Origin: a virus
Lineage: Duplodnaviria > Caudoviricetes
DNA length: 64,000 nt
Virus record (IMG/VR): IMGVR_UViG_2596583697_000001
Span: 1 to 64,000 of that record
Strand: one strand, 5' to 3'
Shown: positions 16,988 through 64,000 of the stretch, one piece after another
Layout of the letters: every line of letters starts with the position of its first letter
How positions within the stretch are numbered: the first letter of the stretch is position 1
The notes under the pieces: model-generated
What the model was told of the DNA's origin: nothing
The model's input: the letters and a program-made list of their open reading frames with translations, nothing else
Database searches by the model: none
Made by a program: the position numbers and the translations under genes

Positions 16988-18040
16988 TTAATCCATAAAT
17001 AACTCATCAGAATCTTCATCTTCATCATCTCTAATTACGTATATCTGCGTGGTTTGGCTCGATTCGTGTCCAAGCAAGGCTTGAGCTGCTTCAATATTCT
17101 TGCCTTCTTCAACAACTATACTTGTCGCACGTCCTTCTCTAAGAATATGCGGATGGAATCGTCTACCAATGATAGGAGAGAATACATCTGTACACCAATT
17201 ATTAAATGTGGTTTCGCCTACTTGATTAATGCCACCATTATATTTCGTGATAAACATATATGGGCAATCATCATCTCCACGTTCTTCTAACCATTTTTTA
17301 AATGCTTCCATGGAATAATCGGAGAATTTTAAACGTCTTATCTTACCAGTTTTTCCTTTACCTTTGCAACGGATCTTTGGGGTAAGATAGTATTTGATTT
17401 CTTTTTCTTCTTCAGTTCCATCTTCCAACTTTACCATTTTCTTTTTTACAATGGACTTTGAGGTGATTATATCTTTCAAAATCTGCATTGTTTCGGCTCT
17501 ACGACAACCAGTTTCCCATGTGAATTTTAAGTAAGCGATTTTTTGGTATTTATCTTTAACCTTACTTTCCTCTAACGTAGATATCAACATCTCCATTTCA
17601 GACTTAGTAGGAGGAGTCTTTTCTCTAACAAATGACTTTTCCGGTTTTTTAATTGACGAATTTATGAAATTTCGGAATGTAGGATATTCACTTTCATAAT
17701 AAACCATTATATAATTATTCAAACTACTAACGGCGGCGCGCTTGTTGGAAATATCAGCAGAAGAGTGCTCAAGAGTTATTAACCAATTTTGATATCTCTT
17801 GAAATCTAATCCTTTTATATCTGTCTGCTGTTTATTATTTAGATTTTCCATAACCCACCTAAACCATATCTTTAAAGAGCTGCGATAAGCCTTAATGGAT
17901 TTATCTGATAGTTCAATATTGTTGGCAAAGAAATCGTCATAAATAAACCTGTTAAACTCATTTACTTTACCCCATTCTTCATTTGTTACTTCTGGTATTT
18001 TTTTCATACAAAAATCACTACCTTTCATTTTTAAATACAA
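16988..18040 (-). CDS. Tyrosine recombinase (YomM-like, late region); likely start 18007
   Basis: TGCRRAE, KGKG, HPHILR, LLGH...TTQIY catalytic residues. Confidence 0.9.
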   Translation of the reverse strand: MYLKMKGSDFCMKKIPEVTNEEWGKVNEFNRFIYDDFFANNIELSDKSIKAYRSSLKIWFRWVMENLNNKQQTDIKGLDFKRYQNWLITLEHSSADISNKRAAVSSLNNYIMVYYESEYPTFRNFINSSIKKPEKSFVREKTPPTKSEMEMLISTLEESKVKDKYQKIAYLKFTWETGCRRAETMQILKDIITSKSIVKKKMVKLEDGTEEEKEIKYYLTPKIRCKGKGKTGKIRRLKFSDYSMEAFKKWLEERGDDDCPYMFITKYNGGINQVGETTFNNWCTDVFSPIIGRRFHPHILREGRATSIVVEEGKNIEAAQALLGHESSQTTQIYVIRDDEDEDSDELFMD

Positions 18041-22542: not shown

Positions 22543-22590
22543 TTATTCACCTCCATTAAAAAGAGGCAACAATAAAGTTACCTCTAGCTG

Positions 22591-23391
22591 TTAAGCATTG
22601 CTTACATCTTCCATATTGTACTTATACAACTTCCATAAAGATTTCTCGCCGCATGTCGTCATGGCATCAATTGTAAGTCCCTGAACCGCAGCCTGATCAC
22701 CCATCTGCAAAGAAATTTCACCACTAACTTTTCCTGCTGGTAAAATCATCTGCAACGGAACATCTGTCTTTGTACAGATATCGGTAAACCAAGCATCAAG
22801 ATAGACAGCAACGGTTTCAGAGAATTTATCTGATTCATTATCAAGTTCTTCGTATGAAGTAAACTTCGGGAAATATTCTACATATACCTTATCGGCAGAT
22901 GTAAATTTGCCCGTAGGAAGTGTAATTGTCTTTGTTTCTGGATCGTAAGCAAATTCAGTAGCGGAAGCGGCAGCCCCCTGTACAAATGCATTAAGTCTGT
23001 CTGGATCACCAGTAGCATCAATCTTATACACAAATCCAATCTCATTACCTACTGCACCAGAAGCCTTATGTGTTGTAACGGCACTTGTGCCATTAGCAGT
23101 AACAATTGTCTCTGAGAAAAGTACGTCATTACCGTTAGAAACCTTTTTTAATGTTCCACCAGTCTGAGTTTCAAGGTATCCAATGTCAATTGCACCATTT
23201 TCCGCAGTCAGACCAGCAACTTTGTTTACGTCGAATCCAACTAAATGCGCACCGTCCTGACCATCTGCCCATACTACATCTGAATTACCAGTAAGAGTAG
23301 CAGTCTTTAAATCAGATAAGATGAATTTATTCTTGCCAGTAGCAATATCTCTACCAGTAATCTTTCTGATTTTCTTAAGAGCATATTTCAT
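22591..23391 (-). CDS. Major tail (tube) protein
   Basis: 266 aa beta-rich, strong RBS, followed by terminator; position after neck genes. Confidence 0.7.
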   Translation of the reverse strand: MKYALKKIRKITGRDIATGKNKFILSDLKTATLTGNSDVVWADGQDGAHLVGFDVNKVAGLTAENGAIDIGYLETQTGGTLKKVSNGNDVLFSETIVTANGTSAVTTHKASGAVGNEIGFVYKIDATGDPDRLNAFVQGAAASATEFAYDPETKTITLPTGKFTSADKVYVEYFPKFTSYEELDNESDKFSETVAVYLDAWFTDICTKTDVPLQMILPAGKVSGEISLQMGDQAAVQGLTIDAMTTCGEKSLWKLYKYNMEDVSNA

Positions 23392-23427
23392 TATAAAATC
23401 CTCCTTTAAGCATAAAAATAACGCTGG

Positions 23428-24264
23428 TTAATTAAACCAGCGCAGTTCCTCAAAATCTATTTTTTTAGTGTCTACAAAACCAGAATGTATTGCAGACATA
23501 GTGTGGTTATATCTTAACACTTTATCAGTTCTTTCAATTGCTTCCATCAAATCATAGATGTGTAGATTATTTCTATTGAAAGGGGTGATTCCACCACTAC
23601 AACCCCAAGTGACAGATGATATTAAGTTACCAAGCCTGTTATTGTCGGTCTTATCATTAATTTTCCTATTCACCTGTTTTTTGATTTTCTCACGTTCATC
23701 TTCAATGAGAATTTTCTTTGCGAATTCATCTGCTGGATTAATTCTTATACCATCTTGAATACCATTCATCATTTTAACGAATTGATATATGTATTCATAA
23801 ATCTCAGAGTTAATAACTAGATGATTATCATTAGCAATAACTTCATTACCTTCGCATGTTGCTATGTAAAAACTTTCAATTCCAATAAAAAATTTGAATG
23901 CTTGATAATAGATATTATTTTTAGCTAAAATCTCGTATTGTTCTTTATCATATTTGTCTTTAACATTCTCAATGTTTTTAAAATAATCCTTTAACAACAG
24001 CAAAAACACTTCATAGGCGGTTGTCTTTTCATAATCCATTTCATGGTCATCTAAATAAACCATGTATAAATAAGGATCTGTAAGAAAAATATTAATCATG
24101 CTGAAATATATATCTTCGCTGTATATACCGTTATGTATACTATCTATAGCAAGTACGTCACCTACAGTCGGATGACGAAATGAATATCTGGTTGTAAGTG
24201 GGAGATTATTGCCAGTTTGTAGAAAACTTTTTTTAATCAAACTTTTATTCTTCTCGACAGGCAT
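23428..24264 (-). CDS. Tail assembly protein
   Basis: HPTVGDV...SGFVDTKKI..ELRW motif of SPbeta-like phages. Confidence 0.6.
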   Translation of the reverse strand: MPVEKNKSLIKKSFLQTGNNLPLTTRYSFRHPTVGDVLAIDSIHNGIYSEDIYFSMINIFLTDPYLYMVYLDDHEMDYEKTTAYEVFLLLLKDYFKNIENVKDKYDKEQYEILAKNNIYYQAFKFFIGIESFYIATCEGNEVIANDNHLVINSEIYEYIYQFVKMMNGIQDGIRINPADEFAKKILIEDEREKIKKQVNRKINDKTDNNRLGNLISSVTWGCSGGITPFNRNNLHIYDLMEAIERTDKVLRYNHTMSAIHSGFVDTKKIDFEELRWFN

Positions 24265-39037: not shown

Positions 39038-39340
39038 TTATCTACAAGCCTTTTGATACTTACATCCATTTTTAATTCTATTTTTAATTCCGGTTGCAAT
39101 TTTAAAAGTAGGATAAATACATTTTTCTAAATTTAATTCTGGATTTCCAAATAGATTTTTGCCCTGCATAGGTTTTCGTTCAACCAAAGTAAATCTTCCA
39201 AGCTTGGGAATTTCAACTTCTTCTCCGCAGATAAGTTTCTCTGCTGTCAAACTAGAAGAAGTATTAAAAACTTCTTCTACAGCATAATCAGATAACATGC
39301 ACCTCTTTGCAACTTCTTTCACAAATTCGCTTTTATTCAA
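39038..39340 (-). CDS. Divergent HU/IHF-like DNA-binding protein
   Basis: MNKSEFVKEVA...VEIPKLGRF..PTFKIA. Confidence 0.85.
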   Translation of the reverse strand: MNKSEFVKEVAKRCMLSDYAVEEVFNTSSSLTAEKLICGEEVEIPKLGRFTLVERKPMQGKNLFGNPELNLEKCIYPTFKIATGIKNRIKNGCKYQKACR

Positions 39341-42161
39341 ATAATTTACCTCCGTATCTTTTAAATTTTATATTAAAGATATCAATATCTCCCTCGTTTG
39401 ATTCTTCTATGTATGTGTTTGATGGTGTTAGTTCATACATTATTTCTGTCAAGACATCGTTCTCATAGTTAAATAGCGCATAAAATAATAACTTCGAAAT
39501 ATGTGAATATTTTTTCATGTCTACATATTCTATCAAGGATAGCATCGTATGTTTGTTAATTTTCAATTTACTGATATCGTATACTAATGATTCCCTGTAT
39601 CGATCAGTTAATAGAAACTTTTCAGATGGAGCATAGTATTCTTTCGACCATATAGCATTAATTGAAGAATTAGTAGACTCGCACATTTTCACAATTTTAT
39701 TGAGCTGTTTTTTGTTTACTGAATTTTGACTAAAATCACCAAACCTAAAACACGATGATAATGGAGTAAAATCACTTCCTTTTGTTTTATCCGATCGATA
39801 TCTATTAACTTCTCTTAATAAATAATCCATCGCTGTATGGTGATAGTTATATTTCTTCTTATCAGGGTTACGATATCCCTTGGTCTGAGCTATAAACCCT
39901 ATAAAAGCTGGTTTTATTGCTTTGTTATTAAATGTGCGTCTATCCCACTTGTCTTTTATCGTCTTAAGTTCTCTTACAGAAGAAATATCAAATTCCTTTT
40001 TCGCTTTATCAATTTCAATACACGATAATACGTTTAAAATACAAATATCGTGATAGATCCCTTCAATGTCTTTATAGCATTCGGCTAAAGATTTTCCGGA
40101 TCGATTTATGTAATCCCACATCAAAGTATTTAATTCCTGAGATAAATTGACTATCTCACCGATTTTGTTTTCGCTTGTTTTGTAATCCAAGTCCGCCTTA
40201 TCTGCATTTGTGTAGTGTCTTTGAGATTTCTTAGCGGAGACACGATTGGCTGGAACTTTGAAATACTCGTAGTTCTTTAATGCAGCGTCAATTAATATTT
40301 CATTGTCAGTTACTATCATTTGGTCTGAATCGAAGTCAGCTCCGCTTAATCGTTCTAAGATATTTTCTCCGATAGAGTTAATACAAACAATTTCATCTGT
40401 TAAATTAAAGTATTTATCAATTAGATCATGCTGCATGTTGGTTGATACCAAAATATTCGATGTTGATATATGTGGGCTACGGCAACCTAAGACTTTTTTA
40501 CCATACTTATATCGAGTAGTATGGATATGTCCAGATGGGAGAGAAGTAGTTCCGTCAAATTTCCCGATACTATGGAGTAACATTTCAAATGGATTTCCAA
40601 ATAATACAGAATAATTACCATCAATTAAAATGTGACCTTTTTTAATATTTTTCAAGTAAGCTTTGCATGTTTCCTTTTTAAAATCATAATAATATTTAGT
40701 GTCATAAAATGTATCTGAAAGATTCATCATCGTGTAAATAATATCATTTTTATCTTTAAATACATTGCTCAATTCTTCTCCATCGTCTACCGCACACTTA
40801 ACATGATATTTTAAAACATCACTATCTGTATTTAACAGATTTACATATTCAAGAGACGGCTTTAGCAACGTATGCACATCATCTGATGATAGCTGTAGTG
40901 TATTTAATAATTGGTAATGAGTTTGAACCATCCTGCCATCAAAGAAGTGTGTCTTTTTTTCATGTTTTACTATGCTAAATGTAGGGTCTATATTATTAAG
41001 CCATTGCTCGATAGGAGCAAATTTTATGTATTTTATGCTATTTGGAGTGGTAATAAGTTTTATATCACCAATATCTTTCGCAAGAGTAATATGATCTTTG
41101 TGAAGTTGCGAAATACTGGAGATGTTATTATCTTCAAACCATTTCTGTATATTTGTATTAAAACAGCATGATTTAAAAAATCTATTTCTCAAAAGAACCA
41201 TTCCATATTTTGAATAGTCACCAAGAAGACTGATGTCTATCAAAGATTGTCCATCAAATATTGAGTTGGATATCTCAGCAGTACCTTCTCGCACCGATAT
41301 CTTCTTTTCAGCGTCCATTTCTACGATAATAGAATCTTCAGAAAATGCACTATCGTAATCTGGGATTATTAATATATTTTTAGGATCTATCGTGAGTAAA
41401 TCTATAGCACTGCTGGTCGGCAATGAAATATAAGACTCGAAGGCTGCTAAATCAATCAAATCTCCCTCTTTAATATCAAGTCCACATAAATCCCATTCAT
41501 GAATGTCTGCGTATAATCTTTCGTCTACAAATAGACACTTTCCGACTCTCGATGATCCAGATGTCCTTTTTAAACGAATATAATGTGTGCCATTACAATT
41601 AAATCCACTTTTATATAGGTAATCTCTTAGTTCTTTTTTTGTATATGAGACTTGCACTGTTTTGACGGTATATACTTGATTTCCATACCTATCTTCTTCA
41701 AAATTAAAACCGTCTGGTAGCTCGAAACGGGTGATTTCTCTGGTGGGAGTGAGAGCTACAACTCCTACTATGACACCATCATCTAAGGCAATATTGTCTG
41801 TAAAATGAAGATCGTCAAGTAAGTATCCATCCATAACATATGTATTGGCTTTGACCTTATTAAAATCTTTGCTACTATACTTAAAAGTTACATTTATAAT
41901 TTTATCAGTAAATTCTTTCCCATTGTGTGTAAAAGTGAATGTATCGCTTTTATCGTAAATGCGACTTACAATCTCTCTTATTTTTTCACTATCAAGGCTA
42001 AAATCCAGTGAGTTAATAAACCGATTGAAATTCACATCGCCCTTCTTTGTCAATAATCTATAGCCTATTTTATTTTTCTTTTCGTCTAAAAAATTGTTTG
42101 CAAGGAACAAATCCTTCGCATCAACGCTTGGTATATAAATACAATTTCTTTTTGACTGCAA
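39333..42161 (-). CDS. yonO: YonO-like single-subunit (double-psi-barrel) RNA polymerase
   Basis: RSPH motif, catalytic LSGADFDSD, IGEIVNLSQ, IEIDKAKK; next to HU as in SPbeta. Confidence 0.85.
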   Translation of the reverse strand: MQSKRNCIYIPSVDAKDLFLANNFLDEKKNKIGYRLLTKKGDVNFNRFINSLDFSLDSEKIREIVSRIYDKSDTFTFTHNGKEFTDKIINVTFKYSSKDFNKVKANTYVMDGYLLDDLHFTDNIALDDGVIVGVVALTPTREITRFELPDGFNFEEDRYGNQVYTVKTVQVSYTKKELRDYLYKSGFNCNGTHYIRLKRTSGSSRVGKCLFVDERLYADIHEWDLCGLDIKEGDLIDLAAFESYISLPTSSAIDLLTIDPKNILIIPDYDSAFSEDSIIVEMDAEKKISVREGTAEISNSIFDGQSLIDISLLGDYSKYGMVLLRNRFFKSCCFNTNIQKWFEDNNISSISQLHKDHITLAKDIGDIKLITTPNSIKYIKFAPIEQWLNNIDPTFSIVKHEKKTHFFDGRMVQTHYQLLNTLQLSSDDVHTLLKPSLEYVNLLNTDSDVLKYHVKCAVDDGEELSNVFKDKNDIIYTMMNLSDTFYDTKYYYDFKKETCKAYLKNIKKGHILIDGNYSVLFGNPFEMLLHSIGKFDGTTSLPSGHIHTTRYKYGKKVLGCRSPHISTSNILVSTNMQHDLIDKYFNLTDEIVCINSIGENILERLSGADFDSDQMIVTDNEILIDAALKNYEYFKVPANRVSAKKSQRHYTNADKADLDYKTSENKIGEIVNLSQELNTLMWDYINRSGKSLAECYKDIEGIYHDICILNVLSCIEIDKAKKEFDISSVRELKTIKDKWDRRTFNNKAIKPAFIGFIAQTKGYRNPDKKKYNYHHTAMDYLLREVNRYRSDKTKGSDFTPLSSCFRFGDFSQNSVNKKQLNKIVKMCESTNSSINAIWSKEYYAPSEKFLLTDRYRESLVYDISKLKINKHTMLSLIEYVDMKKYSHISKLLFYALFNYENDVLTEIMYELTPSNTYIEESNEGDIDIFNIKFKRYGGKLFE

Positions 42162-52333: not shown

Positions 52334-52437
52334 ACGAGGGAAGAAACATAATTTTAATAAGCTATAGTAATTTAAAGGGTATAGGCTAATCGCTTATATC
52401 CTTTTTATATTAAGAAAAATAGGAGGAAGGCAAAACA

Positions 52438-53328
52438 ATGAATGCAAATGAATTATTAGAAAGCAAGGAATTACGCGAAAAGTTAGTTGTAAAGGTAGAA
52501 ATTTTAGAGAAGGTTAAGAAATTGCTCCTTATTCCTGGCACTGAATTAGCAACGATTAAACAGGTTGCAGAATTTTATGAAGTAGAGGAAGACACGGTTA
52601 AAAAGTTGGTATTCCGGAATCTTGAAGAGTTAGAAGAAGATGGACTTATATCTTATTCTGGTAAAGAAACCAAGGAGTTTTTTGATAGAGACAATATGTC
52701 CCTTTCAAACTTAAGAGGTGGTTTTGAAGTAAATGGAATACGTTTTAGCAATAGGGGTAATAAATTATTCCCTCGTCGTGCAATTCTACGCATAGGAATG
52801 TTACTTAGAGATTCAGCCGTTGCAAAGGAGATCCGAACTCAACTACTTAATATAGAAGAAAAGGCAACTCCTGAAGTAAAAACCATGGATATCAACGAGG
52901 AACAATCCCTTGCCTTATCCGTTGGAATGGCATATGCAAGCGGAAACCCAGACGCTATTATGATAGCTACCACTAAAATGATGGACTTTAAGAACCGGCA
53001 CATTGCAAGGTTGAACGAGTCTAACAATGCTCTGGCAAATGGTATCCTGGCATGGGAAGACAGAAGCAGGATCAATTTTGCAGTCCGTAAGATGGCAGCT
53101 TATGCCCACATTACAGTGGGTAAAGCATGGAGCGAGTTGTACAAGCAGTTAAAGAATGGTTTCCATATTGATTTACAGAGCAGAGGAAAACAGCCATGGA
53201 TACAACACGTAGATGAAAAAGAATGGCAATGCGTGATTAAAGCATTTTCTGCCTTATGCAAGTATTACGAGTTGGAGCCTAGCGAAATGTTCCATGACTT
53301 AAAAATTGAAGAAGAAACGAAAGTTTGA
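52438..53328 (+). CDS. Phage antirepressor-like DNA-binding protein
   Basis: ATIKQVAEFYEV and LFPRRAILRIGMLLRDSAVAKEIR motifs. Confidence 0.65.
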   Translation: MNANELLESKELREKLVVKVEILEKVKKLLLIPGTELATIKQVAEFYEVEEDTVKKLVFRNLEELEEDGLISYSGKETKEFFDRDNMSLSNLRGGFEVNGIRFSNRGNKLFPRRAILRIGMLLRDSAVAKEIRTQLLNIEEKATPEVKTMDINEEQSLALSVGMAYASGNPDAIMIATTKMMDFKNRHIARLNESNNALANGILAWEDRSRINFAVRKMAAYAHITVGKAWSELYKQLKNGFHIDLQSRGKQPWIQHVDEKEWQCVIKAFSALCKYYELEPSEMFHDLKIEEETKV

Positions 53329-53575: not shown

Positions 53576-54034
53576 ATGAGAAAATACAACACATCTAATT
53601 GTCTGCCAAGTATAGCGAAAATGAAAAAGTCATTTCCTGAATTAGTAGAGAACAAAAAGGATTTTACTAACAACAAAAAATATCTGTACGATTTTTCAAT
53701 GCTTAATGGCAAAATTCCGACTGACATTATGGAATCGATTTACGACCAGGCCATGAAACAAACTGGCATTATAGATTGTTTTGCTGTATGTGACGCTGTA
53801 TCAAGCACAGAGGACAAGAAGTATTTTGTCTATCTGGACTTTATCCCATACAAGGTAATAAACAAAAATACAGGCAGAACAAGTTATTGTGTCATGGAAC
53901 TATCGGCTATACGAATATCAGTCTATGACATGAATGTATACGGCTATGCAGAGAATATCCAAGCGGATTATATAGAAGCTGGTCACTGGAAAGAGAGCAC
54001 TTTGACATATATCAACGATATAGAAGTGGCATAG
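53576..54034 (+). CDS. Hypothetical early protein
   Basis: MRKYNTS..., RBS-like AGGGGG. Confidence 0.6.
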   Translation: MRKYNTSNCLPSIAKMKKSFPELVENKKDFTNNKKYLYDFSMLNGKIPTDIMESIYDQAMKQTGIIDCFAVCDAVSSTEDKKYFVYLDFIPYKVINKNTGRTSYCVMELSAIRISVYDMNVYGYAENIQADYIEAGHWKESTLTYINDIEVA

Positions 54035-54062
54035 ATTATCCATTTCATAGGGAGGTAAGGAT

Positions 54063-54236
54063 ATGAAACCTGTTGATTATTTGATAACTGATTTACAGAG
54101 AATGAAGGATAAAAGAGAAAATATCTGTAAGGAACTTGGTAATGGATACGATTGGATGCTAGTTGAAAGTTTAATATCCATTGAAAATAAAATTAAACAG
54201 ACAGCCGAGAGGATCGACAAAATGCAAAACCTATAA
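54063..54236 (+). CDS. Small hypothetical protein (not in ORF track)
   Basis: GGAGGT RBS; MKPVDYLITDLQRM... Confidence 0.65.
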   Translation: MKPVDYLITDLQRMKDKRENICKELGNGYDWMLVESLISIENKIKQTAERIDKMQNL

Positions 54237-54269
54237 AACGATTATTTCATGATAGGGAGATAAAAAGAT

Positions 54270-54500
54270 ATGAAAAGAAAATGGGAAATAGTACATGATT
54301 GCGATGGAGACAACGGAGAACCTACTTGCTGGGTTTTAGAAGTAAATCATAACGATTATGGAAAATTTATCTGGATAACGGATTCTGCGTTAGGGTTTGA
54401 TATTGAATACAAAAGTAAATACAGTAATGATATTACTCCTCTTATAACATGTAAAACCTTAACATCTGCAAAAAGATGGGTATCAATAAATATAAGATGA
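54270..54500 (+). CDS. Hypothetical early protein
   Basis: WEIVHDCD...CKTLTSAKRWV. Confidence 0.7.
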   Translation: MKRKWEIVHDCDGDNGEPTCWVLEVNHNDYGKFIWITDSALGFDIEYKSKYSNDITPLITCKTLTSAKRWVSINIR

Positions 54501-54527
54501 AAACCGAATTTTAAGGAGGAAGTTGTT

Positions 54528-54680
54528 ATGCACGGATATGACGTTTATTTCAAAGGTGGAATGAGAGTTTTTGTATCATCTAGCACCCCCAAAGAGGCCA
54601 TTCAAAAGGCAAAAATTAAATTTCCCGGAATGGAGGTTATTGGACATAGTCTTAAATGTATAAAAACAAATATTGTTTAA
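54528..54680 (+). CDS. Small hypothetical protein (not in ORF track)
   Basis: AAGGAGG RBS; MHGYDVYFKGG... Confidence 0.6.
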   Translation: MHGYDVYFKGGMRVFVSSSTPKEAIQKAKIKFPGMEVIGHSLKCIKTNIV

Positions 54681-54694
54681 TGTAAATAATATCA

Positions 54695-54767
54695 GCAGAG
54701 TGGAACGGCTTACATAGCCGTTTTAATGCACATGGCAAAGCCATACGGTCACAAGTCCGTAAGCATT
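54695..54767 (+). ncRNA. Twister ribozyme, circularly permuted
   Basis: GCA-GAGUG-[P1 GAACGGCU/AGCCGUUU]-UAA-UGC-AC-[P3 AUGGC/GCCAU]-[P4 ACGG-UCACAAGU-CCGU]; pseudoknots CAC/GUG and AC/GU. Confidence 0.7.
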
Positions 54768-54787
54768 AAGGAATGGGGGATTAAACA

Positions 54788-54946
54788 ATGAAAAATTACA
54801 AGGTAACTTTTGAGAGAAGCAATAAAACTATTGGATCAGATGTTTTTACAGCAAATTCCAGACAGGGAGCAGGACATGAATTTAAAGAATGTTATCGACA
54901 TGATGTGTATAAAATTTTATCAATAGAGGAAGTCGAGGAACAATAA
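54788..54946 (+). CDS. Small hypothetical protein (not in ORF track)
   Basis: MKNYKVTFERSNKTIGSDVF...YKILSIEEV. Confidence 0.6.
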   Translation: MKNYKVTFERSNKTIGSDVFTANSRQGAGHEFKECYRHDVYKILSIEEVEEQ

Positions 54947-54979
54947 AATTCTTATTTCAAATTGAAAGGATAAAGAAAA

Positions 54980-57900
54980 ATGAACGATGTGGGATATGAT
55001 ACAAGTTTAAAATACAAGGGTTCATATGCTGAGATAAGCGTAAAAACTGCGACACAAGACGGATTAAAGAACTTAAAACCATACTATGAGGGGGCGATAG
55101 CCTATCATACAAAAGAAAATAACAAAAGTCAAATCGCCTTCTTTTCAGAGGGATTGAATCTTATTAATAAAAGACTAAATTAACAATGAATCTATTCATT
55201 CTTTTGAAAATATGGAGGCAAAAACATATGAGTTACGATATACAGTTGGTTAATAAAGAAGATGTAAGGATAGGTGACACAATTCTATGTAATGATGGAA
55301 ATATAAGAACAGTGTGCCGAAATAACATTACTAGCGGATTTATGGGGTCGTGTTTATTTGGCGAGTCCTATCGGTTAGGGCAAGAAAGAGTTAAAAAAAT
55401 AGTCAATCTGAAATATTAATAAATTTTATTTCCAGTCATAAGCCATTAGAGAATATAACTCTAGTGGCTTTTATAGTGGGTATAACACGAAGAAAAAACA
55501 TATGGAGGATATTATCATGAGAAAAGAATATACAGTAGAACAGATGGCAGGTGCAAGATGGTTTTATACATTCACAGAACCTAATGCAAAAGGTGAAAAG
55601 ATAGTGATGGAGCTAAGCAAATGTATTAATCCAGGTGGAAGTAATGCAATTCCTGTATTATGGAATAAACATGGATATATGGATAGGGTTCTGGAAACAT
55701 ATTGGAGTATTCAAACTTATGTGACAGATACAGAGGGATATTGTTATGGAATGTATAATCCTCAAGAGAAACCAGGAAGATATGAAATAAATTTCGATTG
55801 GATATTTGAAGCAACAGAAGAGAACAAAGAAAAGTTAATTGATGAAGTTTATAAATTGGCATCGTCAGCATATGGAGAAACAGCAACAGAGAGGAAGCAC
55901 AGAAAAATTAAAGAATTTGCAGCCAAGGAAAAAGTTGAACTTTTAACAGAGATTCCGGAAGGGTGGAAGAAATTAAAAGGATCGATGACTGCACCTTACG
56001 GATCTGTGTGGGTATCTAACAAGGAACCATTTAAAAGTGGAAACAGAAAAACAGCATTATTGTTAGTTTGTTAAACTATTTTAGAAAATAGAGGTATTAA
56101 AGATGAAAAAATATACGAGAAAAAATTTTTCTGCATATTTGTCTGATTGTGACTATAAAGGTTACAGAACATATGCATGGATTGAAAATTTAACTATAAA
56201 ATATTTTTATCTGCAAACAGTAGAGGACTACACAAAGACCTTTGAGACTCTTGCAGATTTGTATGATTATATTGATAACAAGTAAAAAGTATGGGAAGGC
56301 GGTAAAAAATATGAAAACTATAAAGGTGATTTTTGAAAAAGGTAACAGCTTCACAACAAGAATTAATGGGACAGAAGACGAAATAAAAGCTTATTATGTT
56401 GGGAAGGTCTTTAACTTGGGTTGTGTGGAAGACGATTTACAGAAAGTAATAGGGGTTGAATTTTTATGAATTGCGGATGAAAAGTAAGTTTCATTTAGAA
56501 TGGAGGATTAAAAATCATGACAAACGCATTATTTAATCGTGGGGAAAATGGTCATATGTCAATGCGTGATATGGATCTTGAATGGTTGCGTAAACAGGCA
56601 TATTTAAAATGTAGTTTTGAAAATGCTGATATTAAAAAGATTGATAAAATCGTCAACGGAATTAAGGCAGGTAAAATTAATAAAAGCAATTTATTTGACG
56701 AAGTGCGGAAGCTAACGAAGAATGTAACAAGTGATCATTCTATAGGAAGATGGCAGTGCATTACAGAGTGGTTCAATGATACGGAATGGTTTTGAAGGTA
56801 ATGTTTACGAATCAGAATAAAATGCACGTTTAATGGTGAGTAATCGGAGAATATATATCTGGTTGCTTTTTTTATGTTCAAAACCAGGAAGGGGATTGTA
56901 ATGGACGAAAACATAATCATATGCCCAAATTGTAGCCGAAAATTAAGTATCATCAGAAAAGATGGGAATATAAGGAAAGAAATTCATTGTAGATGCCGTG
57001 ATAAATATGGGCACACGATGATCCAATGGGTATCTGGAGCAGGCTATCATTACTTTAGCAATGAAATGGAATGGATTCCAGTTATACACGGGTAAATAAA
57101 ATACATGATTTATTAGGAGGTAAAAATATATGAGTTATTATAGGAATTGGAAATGCTACAGCTATGGCTTATGTGGAAGTGATAGAGAATATGATTATCA
57201 GGAGCTTAAAGAATACTTTGAAATTGATGGTAGTGACGTTGCATATTGTAAAACAAATATTTTGGAATATAAAGCTGGCAACTATTATAGCATTCTCGCC
57301 GGTGGACAACTCAATGGTAAAGAATACGGATTTGTTATACTGGAAAGATGAAAGGAAAATTTCAAGGGAGGATATATTTTGAATAGAAATAAAATTACTT
57401 TATTCGGTGAAAAGAGCAATGTAGTTATTAAAAAGACTGGCTTATTATCCTATGGAGTATATCAAAATGGAACGCTTCTTGCAAAGTCACGAAAATTCAA
57501 GGCATACCAAAATGATATTTTAAGGATTATGTATACTGGAATTGCTTTCGGAACAGGTGATTATATTCTTGAAGCAGAAAGTATGAGCGGGATAAAAGAA
57601 ATTTATAGATGGAAAGGTTAAGATAAAAGATTTTAATGGAGGTCTTATTATGAGTTTAATTGAATATAGGAGTAATGATATTGATATGAGCGCATTTAAA
57701 GAAGATTTAAAATATTGGAGTAATTGTTGTGGGGAATTACATCACCATGGAGAATATGATATAGAAGAATTTGATTTGCCACAAGAGTTAAAGCGGGCAT
57801 ATACAGACTTATGGACTGAAGGTGGTGGCTCTTTATGCTATCTTGTTGAATACAAAGGCTTATATGGAATTGCCTTAATTAATGAATTTGATGATTGGTT

Positions 57901-59687
57901 CGCAGAAGATGAGGGAGTGTCCATGGATTCTCTTTATGAACAAATGAAACAGAAGGCCAATTCTTTAATTGATAATGATTTATTTAAAGAATCTCAAATT
58001 ATATGTTCCGAATATGCTGGTTTCAATGAATGTCATGAATTAATAGTTATTCTGCCTACTTATATAGAAGAAGATATATTTAATAGAATCATGGATTATC
58101 TTGATAAAACAGTTTATGGATTGAAATTGTAATTTAATTAGAAAGGGTAAAGGCAAAAAGCATGATTAAAATGATTGTAAGATATAGAGTAATGAGCGAA
58201 GTCAGAAGATTAATTAATATTGCAAAAGAAAAGGTTACTAGTGGAGGAGATGAATACGAATGGTTTGATTATGTAAATAAGTACCTTGATTTTATCTGGA
58301 ATGCTAAATTAATCAATAAGAAAAATATAGATATTTTGTGGAGAGAATTGCAAGATGCAACAAATGAAAAATAGATTTTATAAGCATATAAAAATATGGA
58401 GGTAAAAGGGTGAGTGAAAATATGAAGTTTGGAGAGAACACATATAAACAAATGATATATTTATGCAGACAAGATAAATTAACACCTGATGGAAAAGTTA
58501 GATTCAACGTAGGGTTGAAATGGCAACCTATAAATGAAAATTGGAAACCTTATTGTATAAGTGACTTACCCAATACTGTTGATAATGGAGAGGATGCAAA
58601 ACAGTTTACAGGAAGACAAAGGAAAAATGCTATTATATATGCAAAAGAATTGAAGCAAAAATACAATTTAGAAATAGACGAATCTCTTATATAGAAAATA
58701 CAATAGAAAACAGGTTTCATAGGTAGCGAAAGGAGAATAGAGAATAAATGAAAAAGTCAAAATTAGTATTGGAACTTAGCTGTTGCGTTGGTTACGGTTA
58801 TATGGCATATATTGAGTTTGGGGCGAAGGAAGCAGTTGTAGACTTTCTGAAAAATTTCTGTATGTGGGGAGGAAGCACAAAAACATTTAAAAGCTATAAC
58901 ATGTACGAATTATCAGAGGATGTGATGAAATTTATGACTACTAGATCGTTTAAATCGTGGTTGCTAAAGAACAATGTTGAGTTGCTTACAAAATACGAAG
59001 TAGAATATGATAGAGTCTTAAACGAAGTATTTTTACAAGCGTGACAATAGAAAGCACATTTTATAAACAGAGGAGAGAAAAATATAATGAAAAACGTATT
59101 TACGATTTATTTGATTATTAGCATCATAGCATTAAATATACTATTACTAAACATTAAAAAAGACAATGCCAGGCTAAAGACAATACTCAAGGAAGCACAT
59201 TATGCAACGCTTGCAGTAATATCATTTACTCCAATTATACACTTAATTGTCGTTGCATTATCGATTTTTAATAAAGGATCTATTGATATTTATGAAATGA
59301 CTAAGACATGGAAAGAGAGGGAATCATGATAAGCACTGTCAAAGATTATAACAACTCATACAGTTATCAACGAATGCACAAGAGAAAACAACGTAGAAAT
59401 TTCATAATATTGAACCGAATTATAGGAAGCATTTTACCGATGCTTTCTATTTTTTCACTCTTTATGATGTCTGATCAGTGTGGAAACTGGACATTTGCAG
59501 CTTTACTGATTATTATAAGCATGGCTTTATTTATGCAAACAAAAGGAGAATATTAAAAATGAGCAATGTAAAATTTCACTATCAGAAGAATAAGGAAGGG
59601 AAAATCGAAATGTATGCAAATGGTATATACATATCTACATTTGATAACTTTACGGAGATTTTCGCCTTACATAGTCTTTTATCTTAA
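54980..59687 (+). CDS. Run of ~15 short co-oriented hypothetical early genes (54980-55183, ~55228-55419, 55517-56074, 56103-56285, 56310-56469, 56517-56795, 56874-57095, 57130-57351, 57379-57621, 57650-58132, 58162-58374, 58410-58694, 58748-59044, 59087-59329, 59326-59556, 59559-59687)
   Basis: Mostly GGAGG-type RBSs, tightly packed; 59087 and 59326 are membrane proteins; no recognisable families. Confidence 0.65.
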
Positions 59688-59850
59688 TACATAGCCTTGT
59701 CGGTGATCCGGAAGGATAGGCCGTGCTGCAAAAGTAAACAAGGCATTCCCGGCAGTCTGAAAGTGATTGCTGCTTACCACAGGAGAATTAGTGGTTGATC
59801 TGGCATAGGTCACTAACCGCACATAATTAGCGGTAGATTATTAATAGGAG

Positions 59851-60048
59851 GTGTTTCGTATGGGGTATGGAGAATTAGAACAGTGTAAGGACTTTGGCAA
59901 GCTGAAGACGGTATTTGATAGTGATATGCTTGGATACTTTGAGAGGCAGCTAGAACGCTATTTAAATGGATCAGAAGATAGACCAGCGGTAGTATGTTGG
60001 TGGGAAGGTGTATTGAGTACAGAGGAATTTATAAGTCAATGTTCATAA
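59851..60048 (+). CDS. Hypothetical protein
   Basis: AGGAGGTG RBS. Confidence 0.6.
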   Translation: MFRMGYGELEQCKDFGKLKTVFDSDMLGYFERQLERYLNGSEDRPAVVCWWEGVLSTEEFISQCS

Positions 60049-60077
60049 ATATTATAAGAAAATAGGAGGATTATCAA

Positions 60078-60233
60078 ATGAGCTATGAAAAATTTAAACC
60101 AGAAGAAGTAATTGATATTTTAACACAGTTTCAAAAGTATTTGACGGAGGGTAAAGAACTTGAATGCAAACCTACAGAACTTCTTGGAGCCGTAGAATAT
60201 GCAAAAGAGACAGTAAAAATGCTAAAACAGTAA
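60078..60233 (+). CDS. Small hypothetical protein (not in ORF track)
   Basis: AGGAGG RBS; MSYEKFKPEEVIDIL... Confidence 0.6.
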   Translation: MSYEKFKPEEVIDILTQFQKYLTEGKELECKPTELLGAVEYAKETVKMLKQ

Positions 60234-60298
60234 TAGAAGTGTGCTTTCATTTGGAGAATATTCTAGTGAAACTAGAAAACCAAATGAAAGGAGTTTAA

Positions 60299-60859
60299 AT
60301 GCCAAGAAAGAAGAAGGGCAATAATTACATAATTGATAAAGAGAACAATATTGCCAAAATAGAGTTGAGAAGAAGGGGTAAAGAAAATTTATGGACGGTT
60401 GTTGATATTGAAGATTTACGGCGAATATTAGGTTTTCCGTATAGTTGGTTTTCGAAATATGACCCACATATAAATGATTTTTATTCAGTTTCCACTGAAT
60501 ATTTATACTTTGATAATAAAAAGCCTATAAATAGACCGGTGTATTTACATCAATATATTATGAGGGCAGAAGGGAGGATAATTGATCATATAAATAACAA
60601 CACTTTAGATAATCGAAAAAGTAATCTGCGAATTGCGCCAGATGCGAATAACTCTAAAAATCGAAAGGGAAGAAATCGCAATAACAAATCGGGGTACAGA
60701 AATGTATCGAGATTTGATAATCAGTGGTATGTCCAGCTACAGGTTGATGGTAAAAATACATGTTTGGGAAAATTTCCTTTAGATAATCTTGATGATGCCG
60801 TAAAATTTGCAGAAGAAATGAGACAAAAATATTATGGCGAGTACGCTGGAAATGCGTAG
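60299..60859 (+). CDS. HNH-AP2 homing-type endonuclease
   Basis: YLHQYIM..IDHINNNTLDNRKSNLR..N..N; SGYRNVS AP2-like C-terminus. Confidence 0.9.
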   Translation: MPRKKKGNNYIIDKENNIAKIELRRRGKENLWTVVDIEDLRRILGFPYSWFSKYDPHINDFYSVSTEYLYFDNKKPINRPVYLHQYIMRAEGRIIDHINNNTLDNRKSNLRIAPDANNSKNRKGRNRNNKSGYRNVSRFDNQWYVQLQVDGKNTCLGKFPLDNLDDAVKFAEEMRQKYYGEYAGNA

Positions 60860-60910
60860 CTGCCAACGAAAGAGATATTTTAACTATAAAAAGTAAAAGG
60901 AGAATGTGAA

Positions 60911-61810
60911 ATGAAGTTAATAGAAAGAGTTTATGGTTTTGTTATCTATGAATTAGACGAAGTAATGATAAATAAATTTGGAGGAAAATACTTCCTGTCA
61001 CAAGCTGAAATATCTGAATATTGGTTGAAAAATCATTCGGTGGAAGAAACCATTTCCGAATTAAAATCATATAATTACGAGGGTATTTTTCAAACAAGGT
61101 TGGAGGCTTATTATCAAGCCAATTTAGTAGAAATGGAACATCAATATAATTTACTTAAAAATAGCATTAAGGAGACTTGTGAGAAAATGAATAATAGAAC
61201 TGACGTTAACTGGTATGAAATATCTGAATAAAAACAAGATTATATTGTGAAGATGGAGGTTGAGAAGATGAGAAGCGAAGACAGATTACAAAGTGTTTAT
61301 ATAGGAGTTGTTGCCGGGATTAAATGTTGTAAAGAAGGGGAAAGGTCAGATTATAACAAAGGGAAGATGGCAGCATATAGCGAGGTACTTAGCGCAATGG
61401 GTATAAATATTGAAGATGTATGCGTTTTGATGGCAAGTGTATGAGCCAATAAATCCACAATTTCAAGCAAGAAAAGGAGAGTAAACGTGAAAATTAAAGA
61501 GAATTTAACAGTAAGAGAAGCAGAGGACTATGCAAAAGAGAACGGATATAATAAGGTGGCATTTAGCCTTAAGATTAACGATAAATATGTCGTAAGTGGA
61601 AAATATTTAGACGCATACTATGATCTCATTGAGATCCCAGTTCTCGGAAGCGGATTTACAAGATTTGCCGATTTATGCAAAGAACATGGGGAGCGAAATT
61701 TATCTATTGATATTATAGACGAAGAAGAACTTAAAAATAGTATATCTTTTGATTTTATTATCAGGGGTAAATTTGACAGTATTCCAGAAGAATACAAAAT
61801 TGCTGAATAA
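60911..61810 (+). CDS. Three hypothetical early genes (60911-61231, ~61268-61444, 61487-61810)
   Basis: RBS-preceded ORFs separated by the 18-bp motif. Confidence 0.65.
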
Positions 61811-61819
61811 AATCAGGAT

Positions 61820-62866
61820 TTGAATGGAGGTAATATCATGACATACCATGAACAAAATGATATCCAGAATATAAAAAAACTTAGAAGTATTATATCTGCA
61901 TTGCCAGCTTATTGCGAAGACTTCTTTCGGGGAATCGAGCCAAGGACTTCCTCGAAGACTAGGATTGCTTATGTGGCCGATCTGAAGCTATTTTTTGATT
62001 ATCTGATCAGAAGTGGTCAAGTAAAAGATATGGAGTCAATTACTCTTGATATGCTTTCAGGCTTGAAAATCATTGATTTTGAAAAGTATATGGAGTGGAT
62101 AAAATGTTGGACTGATGATTCAGGTAAAGAATATACCAACGGAGAAAAAGCTATTGCAAGAAAGTTGTCTACGTTGAAAGCCTTCTACAAGTATTTTCAG
62201 CAGAACGAAAGGATAGCCACTAATTCAGTATCACTTGTGCAACCACCGAAACTACGTGATAAGGAGATTATCAGGCTTGATAACGACGAAATGAAAGCAT
62301 TTATACAGGCGGTAGAAACTGGAGGTAATTTAGAAGGAAGGGAACGTGCCTTCTTTGAAATAACACAGAAGCGAGACTTTGCAATAATCATGTTGATTCT
62401 TACCACAGGAGTCCGTGTTTCTGAATGTGTTGGTTTGGATATTAATGACGTAGATTTCAAAAACAGTGGAATTAGAATCTATCGGAAAGGAGGAAAAGAA
62501 GAAACAGTATATTTCAGTGATGACACCAGAGAGGCGTTGGAACCTTATTTAGAAGAAAGAAAACAGACCGAGGCAATTAAAGGGCATGAGAATGCTCTGT
62601 TTTTATCTCTACAGAACAAACGAATATCAACCAGAAACGTAGAGGATTTGATTCCTAAGTACGCAAGGTTGGCAGGAATCCAGAAGAAGGTTACGCCTCA
62701 TACACTACGTAGAAGCTATGGAACGGCCTTATATAACGCTACAGGGGACATTTACCTAGTTGCTGGTACATTGGGCCATGCAGATGTGAACACTGCGAAA
62801 CGGCACTATGTGGCATTGGAAGACGAGAAAAAAAGAGAAAATAGAAATGCTGTTAGGCTGAGATGA
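61820..62866 (+). CDS. XerC/D-like tyrosine recombinase (likely start 61838)
   Basis: TGVRVSE, RKGGK, TPHTLRRSYGT, LGHADVNT...Y. Confidence 0.92.
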   Translation: MNGGNIMTYHEQNDIQNIKKLRSIISALPAYCEDFFRGIEPRTSSKTRIAYVADLKLFFDYLIRSGQVKDMESITLDMLSGLKIIDFEKYMEWIKCWTDDSGKEYTNGEKAIARKLSTLKAFYKYFQQNERIATNSVSLVQPPKLRDKEIIRLDNDEMKAFIQAVETGGNLEGRERAFFEITQKRDFAIIMLILTTGVRVSECVGLDINDVDFKNSGIRIYRKGGKEETVYFSDDTREALEPYLEERKQTEAIKGHENALFLSLQNKRISTRNVEDLIPKYARLAGIQKKVTPHTLRRSYGTALYNATGDIYLVAGTLGHADVNTAKRHYVALEDEKKRENRNAVRLR

Positions 62867-62927
62867 TGGAAGTGGGTGATTTGCTCCCAATAAAAGCAGT
62901 CTTTGATGAGAAAGAGAGGAAGACATT

Positions 62928-63882
62928 GTGAAGTATAAAATAAATTGTAAGTGGATACTCAGGCATATTCCGAATTTAATTATCAGAGTAATAACTTGTG
63001 ACAAATATTATATATGTGAAAAGTGTAATTCTATACATCGGAGAGATGGAAAAGAGCTTAGAATGGATATAGATCAGAAGCCGTCTCTATTATACAAAAG
63101 TGTAAGTTTTGAGTGCTATGTTAAACAGCAGCGGGAAGTGGGAGAACTGCTAAGGATGTCAATGTTTAAACAGTTACCATAAAACAACCTCTTAATAAGA
63201 ATGGAGAAAAAACAATATGAGTAAAGATAAGCAGCCGGTATTAAACCACGGAGACAAGATAATTTATAATGAAAACGATCCACATGTATGGTATGATAAC
63301 ATGAAAGAAGCACTTGAAAATGCAGGATTTACATTGTCTAAGGAGGTGGCGTAATGGCAGGACTAATTGTTATTATTTTAATAGTTGCATATTACAAGTA
63401 TGCAACTCGTAGGCCTAGATACGGTACCCAAGAGTATCTCGACTGGAAATATAAGAATTACCATGGCGGTGGCGAATATATGAAGTCATTAGAGAAGAAG
63501 AATATGACATGTTCATATAAAGATATCCCAATGACTCCTTCTGAAAAAGAAGCTTATAATAAGCATGAAAGAGAAAATGGAAGACCTGGAATTGAATAAT
63601 CTAAAATTGTAATCAAACCTAGATTTTGTAGAAAGTGGTGAGAACATGTGGAAATATTATATAGAAATTTTGACTGGTAGCTGTACAGGAGATTATGTTG
63701 AAGGAAAAGAGGTCCCAGGTGATGGTATTCCCGTTTGTGCCGATTTAGCAGTAGCTAAGTGGTTTGATTCACCAGATGAATTAAATAAGTGGGCAAAAGA
63801 AAATACATCGTTAAATCTTGAAGAGGGTGAGTATGCAATTTATGGAGTATATTATCCTGAACTAAAGGAGGAAGCGGTATGA
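62928..63882 (+). CDS. Four small hypothetical genes (62928-63182, 63217-63354, 63354-63599, 63646-63882); another runs off the window from 63879
   Basis: RBS-preceded short ORFs; 63354 has an N-terminal TM segment. Confidence 0.6.
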
Positions 63883-64000
63883 CAATTTGGGAAGCGGAAA
63901 AGGAAATTTTGAAAGCGCAAACACCACAGGAGATGGATGAAATTACAAATGGTTTTGATAAAAAGGACTTACAAAACATTGTTAAATTGCTTGTAGATAG

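Follow-up and report, generated by a model that had tools for sequence, protein, structure and literature searches.

Breakpoints in mosaic phage genomes lie at gene boundaries, and it is a long-standing question whether this reflects random recombination followed by selection or recombination at special linker sequences. The question is raised again by the early region of the virus record IMGVR_UViG_2596583697_000001, a record of 114,483 bp classed as a provirus, of which bases 1–64,000 (the window in what follows) were analyzed here. Junctions between the small plus-strand genes of this region carry copies of an 18-bp element, ATRAAA-N6-TTTYAT, that is, two inverted arms around a 6-bp spacer, which we call the core (Table 1). 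A preliminary description of the window had regarded these copies as recombination sites of an integron-like system of gene cassettes, served by a tyrosine recombinase that is encoded within the array. Are the elements linkers in the above sense, and what could act on them? The comparison of six phages described below indicates that the elements are probably the crossover points between alternative left and right modules, irrespective of the enzyme.

The element and its position in the early operon

All 21 copies listed in the preliminary description, including an outlying one at 52341, are present at the coordinates given there; three match the pattern exactly, ten with one mismatch, and eight with two mismatches. 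The enrichment over shuffled DNA, which had been named as a check, is clear at zero and at one mismatch. The exact pattern occurs four times in the window, against 0.24 expected, and none of 100 shuffled sequences reached four. At most one mismatch is found in 21 matches, against 7.13 expected (the largest shuffle gave 16, and 0 of 100 reached 21), and 13 of the 21 matches fall within positions 54,233–62,907. Once two mismatches are allowed, clear enrichment is lost (82 matches against 68.5 expected, with 6 of 100 shuffles reaching 82), so that the eight two-mismatch copies need support beyond the pattern. The reduced pattern RAAA-Nk-TTTY taken alone shows no preference for k = 6 at 54–64 kb (10 matches for k = 6, 10 for k = 5, and 13 for k = 15).

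Part of the extra support for the weaker copies is provided by an unbiased count of dyads upstream of the plus-strand genes at 52–90 kb, where ATA-N9-TTT (10 observed against 1.3 expected), AAA-N6-TTT (15 against 2.2), and AAT-N10-TTT were among the top enriched dyads. For the plus-strand genes at 90–114 kb and for the minus-strand late genes, the dyads of the motif were outside the top lists. Arm positions 4–6 and 14–15 of the element agree in 0.82–0.95 of random pairs of sites.

The elements had been described as overlapping or following stop codons and preceding the next ribosome-binding site (RBS), and both statements stand. At ten of the 21 sites the upstream gene terminates within the element, its stop codon being provided by the left arm at eight of them and by the core at two more, and the end of the element is 13–28 nt away from the next start codon at 18 sites, the remaining three distances being 48, 66, and 79 nt. 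Altogether, 18 of the 31 plus-strand genes called in 54,000–63,700 have an element. The recombinase gene is indeed flanked by two copies, those at 61807 and 62890. The array reported at 54031–63629 is real, but it does not stop at the end of the window and continues to approximately 83 kb of the record.

Cores are specific to operon slots and conserved between phages

The source phage (G0) was compared with five relatives. Three viral contigs (G1–G3) came from a scan with the recombinase (85% identity) and two more (G4 and G5) from a scan with one exact element, that with the core AGTAAG, so that the AGTAAG copies of G4 and G5 are a matter of ascertainment. The records are 47–82% complete. In all genomes, genes were called by one simple rule based on open reading frames and RBSs, and an element was assigned to a gene if it occurred with at most two mismatches within 45 nt upstream of the start. 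Gene families were constructed by BLASTP (1e-3) and single linkage, which distributed 781 proteins among 519 families.

The elements are confined to the early plus-strand operon. In G0 through G5, respectively, they were found upstream of 41 of 124, 46 of 151, 28 of 125, 26 of 112, 45 of 127, and 39 of 142 plus-strand genes, and upstream of 8 of 64, 6 of 82, 3 of 66, 0 of 5, 4 of 70, and 6 of 75 minus-strand genes. Within a genome the cores are unique: all are distinct in G0 (41/41), G2 (28/28), G3 (26/26), G4 (45/45), and G5 (39/39), and 43 of 46 are distinct in G1, which contains a duplication. After reorientation of the G1 record, the cores GAGAGG and GTAACG are each found twice in it, at 10478/107314 and 11009/108066, that is, in an unchanged order at a distance of about 97 kb. 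This record may therefore contain a duplicated segment or two related prophages next to each other.

Between genomes the same cores recur. The 225 junction elements of the six phages form 163 cross-genome pairs with identical cores, whereas two kinds of shuffling, with 200 runs each, gave means of 9.8 (largest 18) and 11.2 (largest 20) such pairs; 48 of the 131 distinct cores were found in at least two genomes. Moreover, shared cores follow each other in the same order, the Spearman coefficient being 1.00 in 14 of the 15 genome pairs and 0.83 in the other. The recurring ordered run of cores includes TATCCA, CGATTA, ACCGAA, AGTAAG, AATAGA, AACAGG, AGCACA, GAGATA, TCAGGA, GGATTG, TTTGAG, and TCTAAG. 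The 6-bp cores are thus slot-specific, conserved, and kept in register between phages. The spacer had been characterized as fixed in length and free in sequence; this is correct within one genome, but between phages the sequence is conserved and specific to the slot.

Identical elements stand between unrelated genes

In 136 of the 163 identical-core pairs, both flanking gene families differ. In such pairs the nucleotide identity reaches the background within approximately 8 nt on either side of the element. Outside the element, same-core pairs have an identity of 0.33–0.44 at positions −8 to −1 and 0.40–0.59 at positions +1 to +9, against 0.27–0.37 in control pairs. When the window was compared with the relatives by blastn, isolated matches of 53 and 90 nt were found, and two of the elements lie within them.

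Genes and cores assort nearly independently. Homologous genes of different phages are preceded by an identical core in 20 of 36 pairs and followed by an identical one in 11 of 25. The core is common to 16 of 32 pairs of junctions that share the downstream gene only, to 7 of 21 pairs that share the upstream gene only, and to all four pairs that share both. This mixed sharing means that crossovers occur on either side of the core or inside it, and that genes can change slot. For genes that occur in a second phage, the neighbor across the junction is retained in 21 of the 146 comparisons made where an element is present and in 174 of the 485 made at the remaining compact junctions (p = 4e-7), and in the early 29 kb alone these values are 16 of 94 and 77 of 229 (p = 0.003). 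As the same element with the same core occurs beside unrelated genes and adjacency is kept less often across it, the earlier view of the elements as boundaries of exchangeable gene units is well founded. The proposed exchange of gene cassettes, taken apart from the integron analogy, also holds.

Many of the short conserved islands are elements, but others are not: exact shared islands of at least 17 nt situated outside long matches include 131 with an element and 281 without it. A 14-nt version of this list was rejected, as it contained mostly chance matches. One conserved junction sequence other than the 18-bp element is a 21-nt exact island at window positions 55460–55480, which lies in an 82-nt intergenic gap and is common to G2 and G3, with 17 nt of it present in G1; its sequence resembles one portion of a hairpin with a T-rich stretch behind it.

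Elements and breakpoints in Bacillus phages of the SPbeta group

In positions 50–100 kb of Bacillus phage SPbeta, 23 matches to the element were identified at up to one mismatch, against 5.6 expected and 10 in the largest shuffle, and many of the SPbeta elements occur at yop and yoq gene junctions. The cores TGTAAG, GATGCA, GTAAAA, AGACTG, and CAGAGA are common to SPbeta, phi3T, SPbetaL2, and SPR, and the sequence downstream of them differs.

Breakpoints were analyzed with 590-nt queries centered on three of the SPbeta elements and searched against other Bacillus phages. For all three, every partial match begins or ends at the element and includes it, and the matches fall into left-only and right-only classes. 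For the GATGCA element (query positions 284–301), the left-only matches end at 300–302 in four records and the right-only matches start at 283–284 in two. For the TGTAAG element (288–305), eight right-only records, seven of them of the phi3T type, start at 288, and nine left-only ones end at 310–336. For the GTAAAA element (286–303), the left-only matches end at 300 or 311, and the right-only matches start at 281 or 299.

In SPbetaL2, the CAGAGA element (22557–22574) directly precedes a gene annotated as Gad1 (22609–23502), and the same element, at 22864–22881, precedes the corresponding gene of phi3T; SPbeta has the core ACGATA and the gene yoqY at this place. Gad1 is presumably an anti-defence gene. 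As for recombination in the laboratory, a report on hybrids between phi3Ts and SPbeta places 15 of 16 recombination sites in homology regions, mostly in the left arm (bioRxiv 10.1101/2020.05.06.055103).

Candidate recombinases

The Xer-like recombinase encoded at 61838 (Table 1) matches XerA (2.5e-22), XerD (1.9e-19), and, more weakly, IntI4 (1.8e-16). Of its catalytic residues, R, K, H-x-x-R, and H are aligned with their XerD counterparts, by the usual numbering of XerD, and the tyrosine is aligned with that of XerA. It has marginal similarity to SPbeta YopP and none to YopR. It is one candidate for the acting enzyme, and its gene is a swappable unit as well. Homologues with 85% identity are encoded by G1–G3, and in the genome collection the nearest match (89% identity) comes from a contig assigned to an Acetobacterium wieringae metagenome-assembled genome. 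More distant homologues (47–59%) are common in Lachnospiraceae and related gut Clostridia.

The second candidate, encoded at 16988 among the tail genes, shares 32% identity with SPbeta YomM along its full length (E = 3e-45), and YomM homologues are present in G0, G1, G4, G5, and SPbeta. The consulted portions of the SPbeta literature (PMC10516654 among them) ascribe no role to YomM or YopP. A third tyrosine recombinase is located at the right end of the full record (113338–114483), has 93–94% homologues at the ends of G2 and G3, and is probably the integrase of the provirus.

Table 1. Junction elements and candidate recombinase genes of the window (mismatches are to ATRAAA-N6-TTTYAT)
Feature	Position	Strand	Remarks
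Junction element, core TATCCA	54031–54048	+	2 mismatches; upstream stop at element positions 2–4; core found, collinear, at gene junctions of all 5 relatives
Junction element, core CGATTA	54233–54250	+	exact; core also in G2, G3, G4, flanking genes unrelated
Junction element, core ACCGAA	54497–54514	+	1 mismatch; core also in G1, G2, G4
Junction element, core TTCTTA	54943–54960	+	1 mismatch; core also in G1
Junction element, core AGTAAG	56477–56494	+	exact; core shared with all 5 relatives, downstream genes of 5 different families
Junction element, core TGCACG	56817–56834	+	1 mismatch; 66 nt from called start
Junction element, core TACATG	57096–57113	+	1 mismatch
Junction element, core GGAAAA	57348–57365	+	1 mismatch; core also in G5
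Junction element, core TTGTAA	58121–58138	+	2 mismatches; stop codon in core; core also in G4, G5
Junction element, core AATAGA	58364–58381	+	exact; stop codon in core; 5 genomes, 5 different downstream gene families
Junction element, core AACAGG	58703–58720	+	1 mismatch; core also in G4, G5; GACAGG at this slot in G1, G2, G3
Junction element, core AGCACA	59047–59064	+	1 mismatch; 5 genomes, 5 different upstream gene families
Junction element, core GTGTGC	60233–60250	+	1 mismatch; 48 nt before next start; matched in relative L004
Junction element, core GAGATA	60866–60883	+	2 mismatches; core also in G2, G3, G4
Junction element, core ACAAGA	61228–61245	+	1 mismatch; core also in G2
Junction element, core CCACAA	61449–61466	+	2 mismatches; exact islands with G2 and G3
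Junction element, core TCAGGA	61807–61824	+	2 mismatches; just upstream of recombinase gene; in G2, G5 core precedes a gene of a different family
Junction element, core GCAGTC	62890–62907	+	1 mismatch; downstream of recombinase gene; core in no relative
Probable junction element, core CAACCT	63179–63196	+	2 mismatches; position only; core in no relative
Probable junction element, core CCTAGA	63612–63629	+	2 mismatches; position only; core in no relative
Doubtful copy	52341–52358	+	2 mismatches; 79 nt from next start; spacer in no relative
Xer-like tyrosine recombinase	61838–62866	+	342 aa (348 aa from TTG at 61820); Pfam Phage_integrase 7e-37 and SAM-like N-terminal domain
YomM-type tyrosine recombinase, tail-gene block, second candidate	16988–18007	−	Pfam Phage_integrase 1.9e-16

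A model of addressed exchange

We suggest, at a probability of about 0.35, that in the early accessory-gene operon of SPbeta-like phages the elements serve as addressed junctions for exchange, on which a tyrosine recombinase acts. That the element itself causes the exchange, and which enzyme is the acting one, we infer from the observations above. All elements have the common inverted arms ATRAAA and TTTYAT, and each slot of the operon has a 6-bp core of its own. The left arm often contributes the upstream stop codon, and the RBS for the next gene comes after the right arm, so that recombination within the element would leave two intact genes joined. If two related phages or prophages are present in one cell, exchange would occur between elements with an identical core, keeping the gene order and swapping the one or few genes that are situated between two elements.

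Most likely the arms would bind a tyrosine recombinase of the Xer type, for which the phage YomM-type enzyme, the enzyme encoded at 61838, and host Xer proteins are candidates, and the core would be the overlap region that must match. The general layout of tyrosine-recombinase core sites, inverted arms around 6 bp, had been recognized in the pattern from the start, and it does match ATRAAA-N6-TTTYAT. Such action on matching cores would resemble that on heterospecific lox or FRT sites in engineered cassette exchange. In its most specific form, which we put forward tentatively, the model describes a natural recombinase-mediated cassette exchange, in which a phage or host tyrosine recombinase could use dozens of heterospecific sites to swap accessory and counter-defence genes in register between co-resident phages.

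A number of observations weigh against this model, the first group of them concerning the enzyme. The conserved arms are 6 bp long, against 11–13 bp in known sites, and beyond the arms the identity is near background. No close homologue of the 61838 recombinase was found in the incomplete records of G4 and G5, both of which have full arrays. In a survey of its homologues in the genome collection, 80 loci were kept of the 112 relatives found, and around 79 of these 80 (47–59% homologues) there is no ATRAAA-N6-TTTYAT array; the best two protein matches in the phage collection, MT835478 and MT835555 (47–49%), also have no array (2 and 1 hits) and no equivalent junction motif visible. The link of the array to this recombinase, which had been called at 61820, is therefore weak. 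Further, no recombinase is common to all array-bearing records: the 61838 type is found in four of six and the YomM type in four of the five that contain the late block, and with no single shared recombinase no enzyme can be assigned from sequence data. A scan for co-variation of arms and recombinases in 71 loci, based on palindromic 4-mer dyads enriched at one spacing, yielded three weak matches but weighs neither way, as its positive controls (the early region of the window, L004–L006, and SPbeta) were themselves below the thresholds.

The second group of contrary observations concerns the exchange itself. About half of the homologous gene pairs are located beside different cores (16 of 36 upstream and 14 of 25 downstream), so that any rule of core matching would be leaky, and a strict matched-core mechanism does not predict this. 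The ends of blastn matches fall at 98 of 199 element junctions and at 174 of 374 element-less compact junctions (p = 0.54), and a stretch of SPbeta taken as a control likewise has breakpoints at yopY/yopZ, yopZ/yoqA, and yoqA/yoqB, three junctions that lack an element. Since breakpoints also occur at element-less junctions, mosaicism at gene boundaries is general and the element is not needed for it. Identical cores at recombinant junctions are also expected from recombination driven by microhomology. The fixed place of the element just upstream of the RBS and its occurrence in the early operon only point to a role in expression. Finally, the pairs counted here are not phylogenetically independent, the genes and families depend on a simple calling rule, and a scan for one of the elements supplied two of the six phages.

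Expression signals and other explanations

Only slightly less likely than this model is an explanation close to the operators or RNA-processing signals that the preliminary description had named as an alternative. The element would primarily be an expression signal, either the site of a dimeric protein or a signal for RNA processing or translation, and would become the preferred crossover point only as the longest identical stretch that the very short intergenic DNA offers for homologous or microhomology-mediated exchange. This agrees with its invariable location 5' of the RBS (13–28 nt from the start at 18 of 21 sites) and its limitation to the early plus-strand operon, and also with the breakpoints at element-less junctions. 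The short arms, the lack of a universal recombinase, and the genes changing slot fit as well. The arms are identical in Bacillus and Acetobacterium-type phages, though the YomM proteins are 32% identical, which fits a very conserved reader, for example, a host factor. An arms-only signal, however, leaves the slot-specific cores unexplained, unless these result from survivorship through recombination, and 18 bp is very short for homologous recombination.

One junction in the window bears on RNA-level processing in this operon. A type-P5 twister ribozyme (Rfam RF02684, 51.9 bits against the gathering score of 37.6) was identified at window positions 54694–54760 on the plus strand, in a 107-nt gap between two small early genes. 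As this junction is one without the 18-bp element, transcript cutting between cistrons does occur here, in line with the explanation by expression. Two relatives (L022, 16315–16383, and L042, 17209–17278, both on the minus strand) have the same ribozyme in the corresponding slot, which is delimited by the ACCGAA and TTCTTA elements, and no copy was found in the scanned pieces of G2, G3, and G5 or in SPbeta 50–100 kb. The elements themselves form weak RNA folds (0 to −4.4 kcal/mol), the arm hairpin being the best fold in four of the eight folded. This speaks against an RNA signal, and the idea of an RNA hairpin was dismissed.

A precedent for the combination of expression signal and linker is the shuffling of modules in T4-type phages by PeSLs. 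According to Arbiol et al. 2010 (PMC2839356), a PeSL consists of a strong sigma-70 promoter and a terminator stem-loop, and homologous recombination takes place between copies, including nearby ones in the same genome. In both cases the small non-essential genes of hypervariable early regions are separated by short conserved motifs, and these motifs delimit the insertions, deletions, and replacements that distinguish related phages. The present element differs in being 18 bp long, with no promoter or stable hairpin, and in having a core that differs from copy to copy and is slot-specific across phages. Among the 60 promoter-like sites listed (the best 60 of 94, with 34 weaker sites outside the list) and nine terminator-like sites, none lies between an element and a start codon, except for a pair of hexamers at 59060–59088 adjoining the element at 59047. 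One promoter per gene, which was also considered, was not seen among the listed sites. With no sigma-70-type promoter or terminator accompanying the junctions, the elements are not units of the PeSL type.

It is unlikely that the elements are expression or operator signals only, the mosaic being produced by random illegitimate recombination and by selection for intact genes and signals. Breakpoints at gene boundaries are general, with or without elements, as such an explanation would have it, and inverted hexamers 6 bp apart are a common layout of operators for dimeric regulators. It leaves the shared cores poorly explained, since the 136 identical-core pairs need repeated precise breaks on both sides of an 18-mer. 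The reduced adjacency across element junctions also speaks against it, as do the left-only and right-only homologues at the three SPbeta sites, which include the whole element, and the presence of approximately 40 sites inside one operon, away from promoters.

A precedent for signals of this kind comes from SPbeta itself, where the recombinase-fold protein MrpR represses at a repeated element. According to Kohm et al. 2023 (PMC10516654), this SPBRE is a 15-bp motif at about ten SPbeta promoters, bound by the catalytically dead MrpR (YopR). The likeness is that SPBRE, too, recurs in intergenic DNA of this phage group and that the protein binding it has the fold of a tyrosine recombinase; the difference is that the elements described here are found inside operons, at approximately 40 junctions, and that the 61838 protein is unrelated to YopR or MrpR and keeps the catalytic residues. 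The element is also unlike the common motif of seven MrpR-bound SPbeta promoter regions, which was derived here rather than taken from the published logo, and the identity of the element with SPBRE was rejected.

Finally, that the array is a compositional by-product of stop-codon context, A/T-rich spacers, and RBSs in an A+T-rich genome is highly improbable, as the clear enrichment at zero and one mismatch, the lack of the motif upstream of late genes of the same composition, and the conservation of whole elements between phages within unrelated flanks outweigh the count of 82 against 68.5 at two mismatches, the absence of a k = 6 preference for RAAA-Nk-TTTY, and the use of a left-arm stop codon at eight of 21 sites and of a core stop at two.

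Comparison with known recombination systems

Heterospecific lox and FRT sites share the arms, differ in the spacers, and recombine only with a site whose spacer matches. There, as between these phages, the segment between two unlike sites is swapped and the order is kept. Those sites are engineered and come in two or three variants, whereas the set considered here would be natural, would comprise dozens of variants, and would follow a leaky matching rule.

The integron comparison rested on a one-orientation array of mostly promoterless small genes with recombination-site-like repeats and a tyrosine recombinase nearby, all of which are found in this phage. In integrons, the attC sites are imperfect palindromes of greater length, and recombination takes place on their folded single strands. 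The array has no attC-type site for each cassette, its units lie between two unlike elements, and its cores are unique within a genome. It also has no attI with addition of cassettes at one end, and the recombinase gene stands mid-array with an element on each side, its product being closer to Xer than to IntI4. The integron-like reading is therefore abandoned. The analogy with Tn916, in which spacers may be mismatched, misses the point that the cores are slot-specific and conserved.

The arrangement is more similar to that of dif-type sites, which, according to PMC5357621, have inverted half-sites and a 6-bp central region of strand exchange, the left arm of difH ending in ATGAAAA. The inverted arms and 6-bp center are shared, the inner part of the arm is like ATGAAAA of Helicobacter pylori difH, and an Xer-like recombinase is encoded in the array. 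By the same account, dif has 11-bp arms, occurs once per replicon, and serves in dimer resolution; the present elements have 6-bp arms, about 40 copies per genome, and different cores.

The elements also resemble the linkers of the modular theory of phage evolution. In 1980, Botstein reportedly proposed that linker sequences between interchangeable modules guide recombination, with gene order kept. The elements are likewise short conserved sequences between modules; the theory had few clear examples, and here the sequences have a defined architecture similar to that of a protein site. No description of the element in SPbeta-like phages was found in the literature searched, which did not cover the 1999 SPbeta genome paper (Lazarevic et al.).

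Genome layout and neighboring genes

From its gene content, the source phage is classified here as an SPbeta-like provirus, with a predicted RdRP-family polymerase, a YomM-type recombinase in the tail block, and a long early gene array on the opposite strand. Minus-strand genes extend up to approximately 47 kb of the window and include one for a minor-tail or tape-measure-type protein. A 942-aa protein encoded at 39333–42161 on the minus strand has a Pfam match to the RdRP two-barrel polymerase family (7.8e-06, above the cut-off). This is the family that the single-subunit SPbeta RNA polymerase YonO resembles, and the protein is accordingly read as YonO-like. The plus strand from approximately 52 kb on is a long run of small genes. 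This layout agrees with that of SPbeta (compared with NC_001884). A search of the phage collection for near-identical DNA, with window positions 54,000–63,900 as the query, gave no match.

The slot gene at 60299–60859 (plus strand) encodes an HNH endonuclease (PHROG 3.6e-30; Pfam HNH_3), and the gene at 52438–53328 (plus strand) encodes an anti-repressor-like protein (PHROG Ant 2e-05, with ORF6N below the cut-off); no PHROG family was found for the seven other slot proteins searched. The plus-strand gap at 59688–59850 between early genes, which is 163 nt and thus long for this operon, lacks an element, gave no match to Rfam with E values up to 0.1, and may hold an RNA of a new kind or a promoter.

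Implications for phage mosaicism

With a defined 18-bp element that is in register across phages with unrelated neighboring genes, the question of how mosaic breakpoints come to lie at gene boundaries can now be tested. The element is also present in SPbeta and its relatives from B. subtilis, where crosses, deletions of genes such as yomM, yopP, ripX, codV, and recA, and in-vitro assays are routine. The slots hold early genes with a fast turnover, and the mechanism of their exchange would therefore bear on the trade in counter-defence genes between phages. If a recombinase is involved, the cores would constitute a natural library of orthogonal recombination sites. If the model of addressed exchange is true, the elements would be a molecular form of the linkers of the modular theory, and the orphan tyrosine recombinases YomM and YopP could be given a role.

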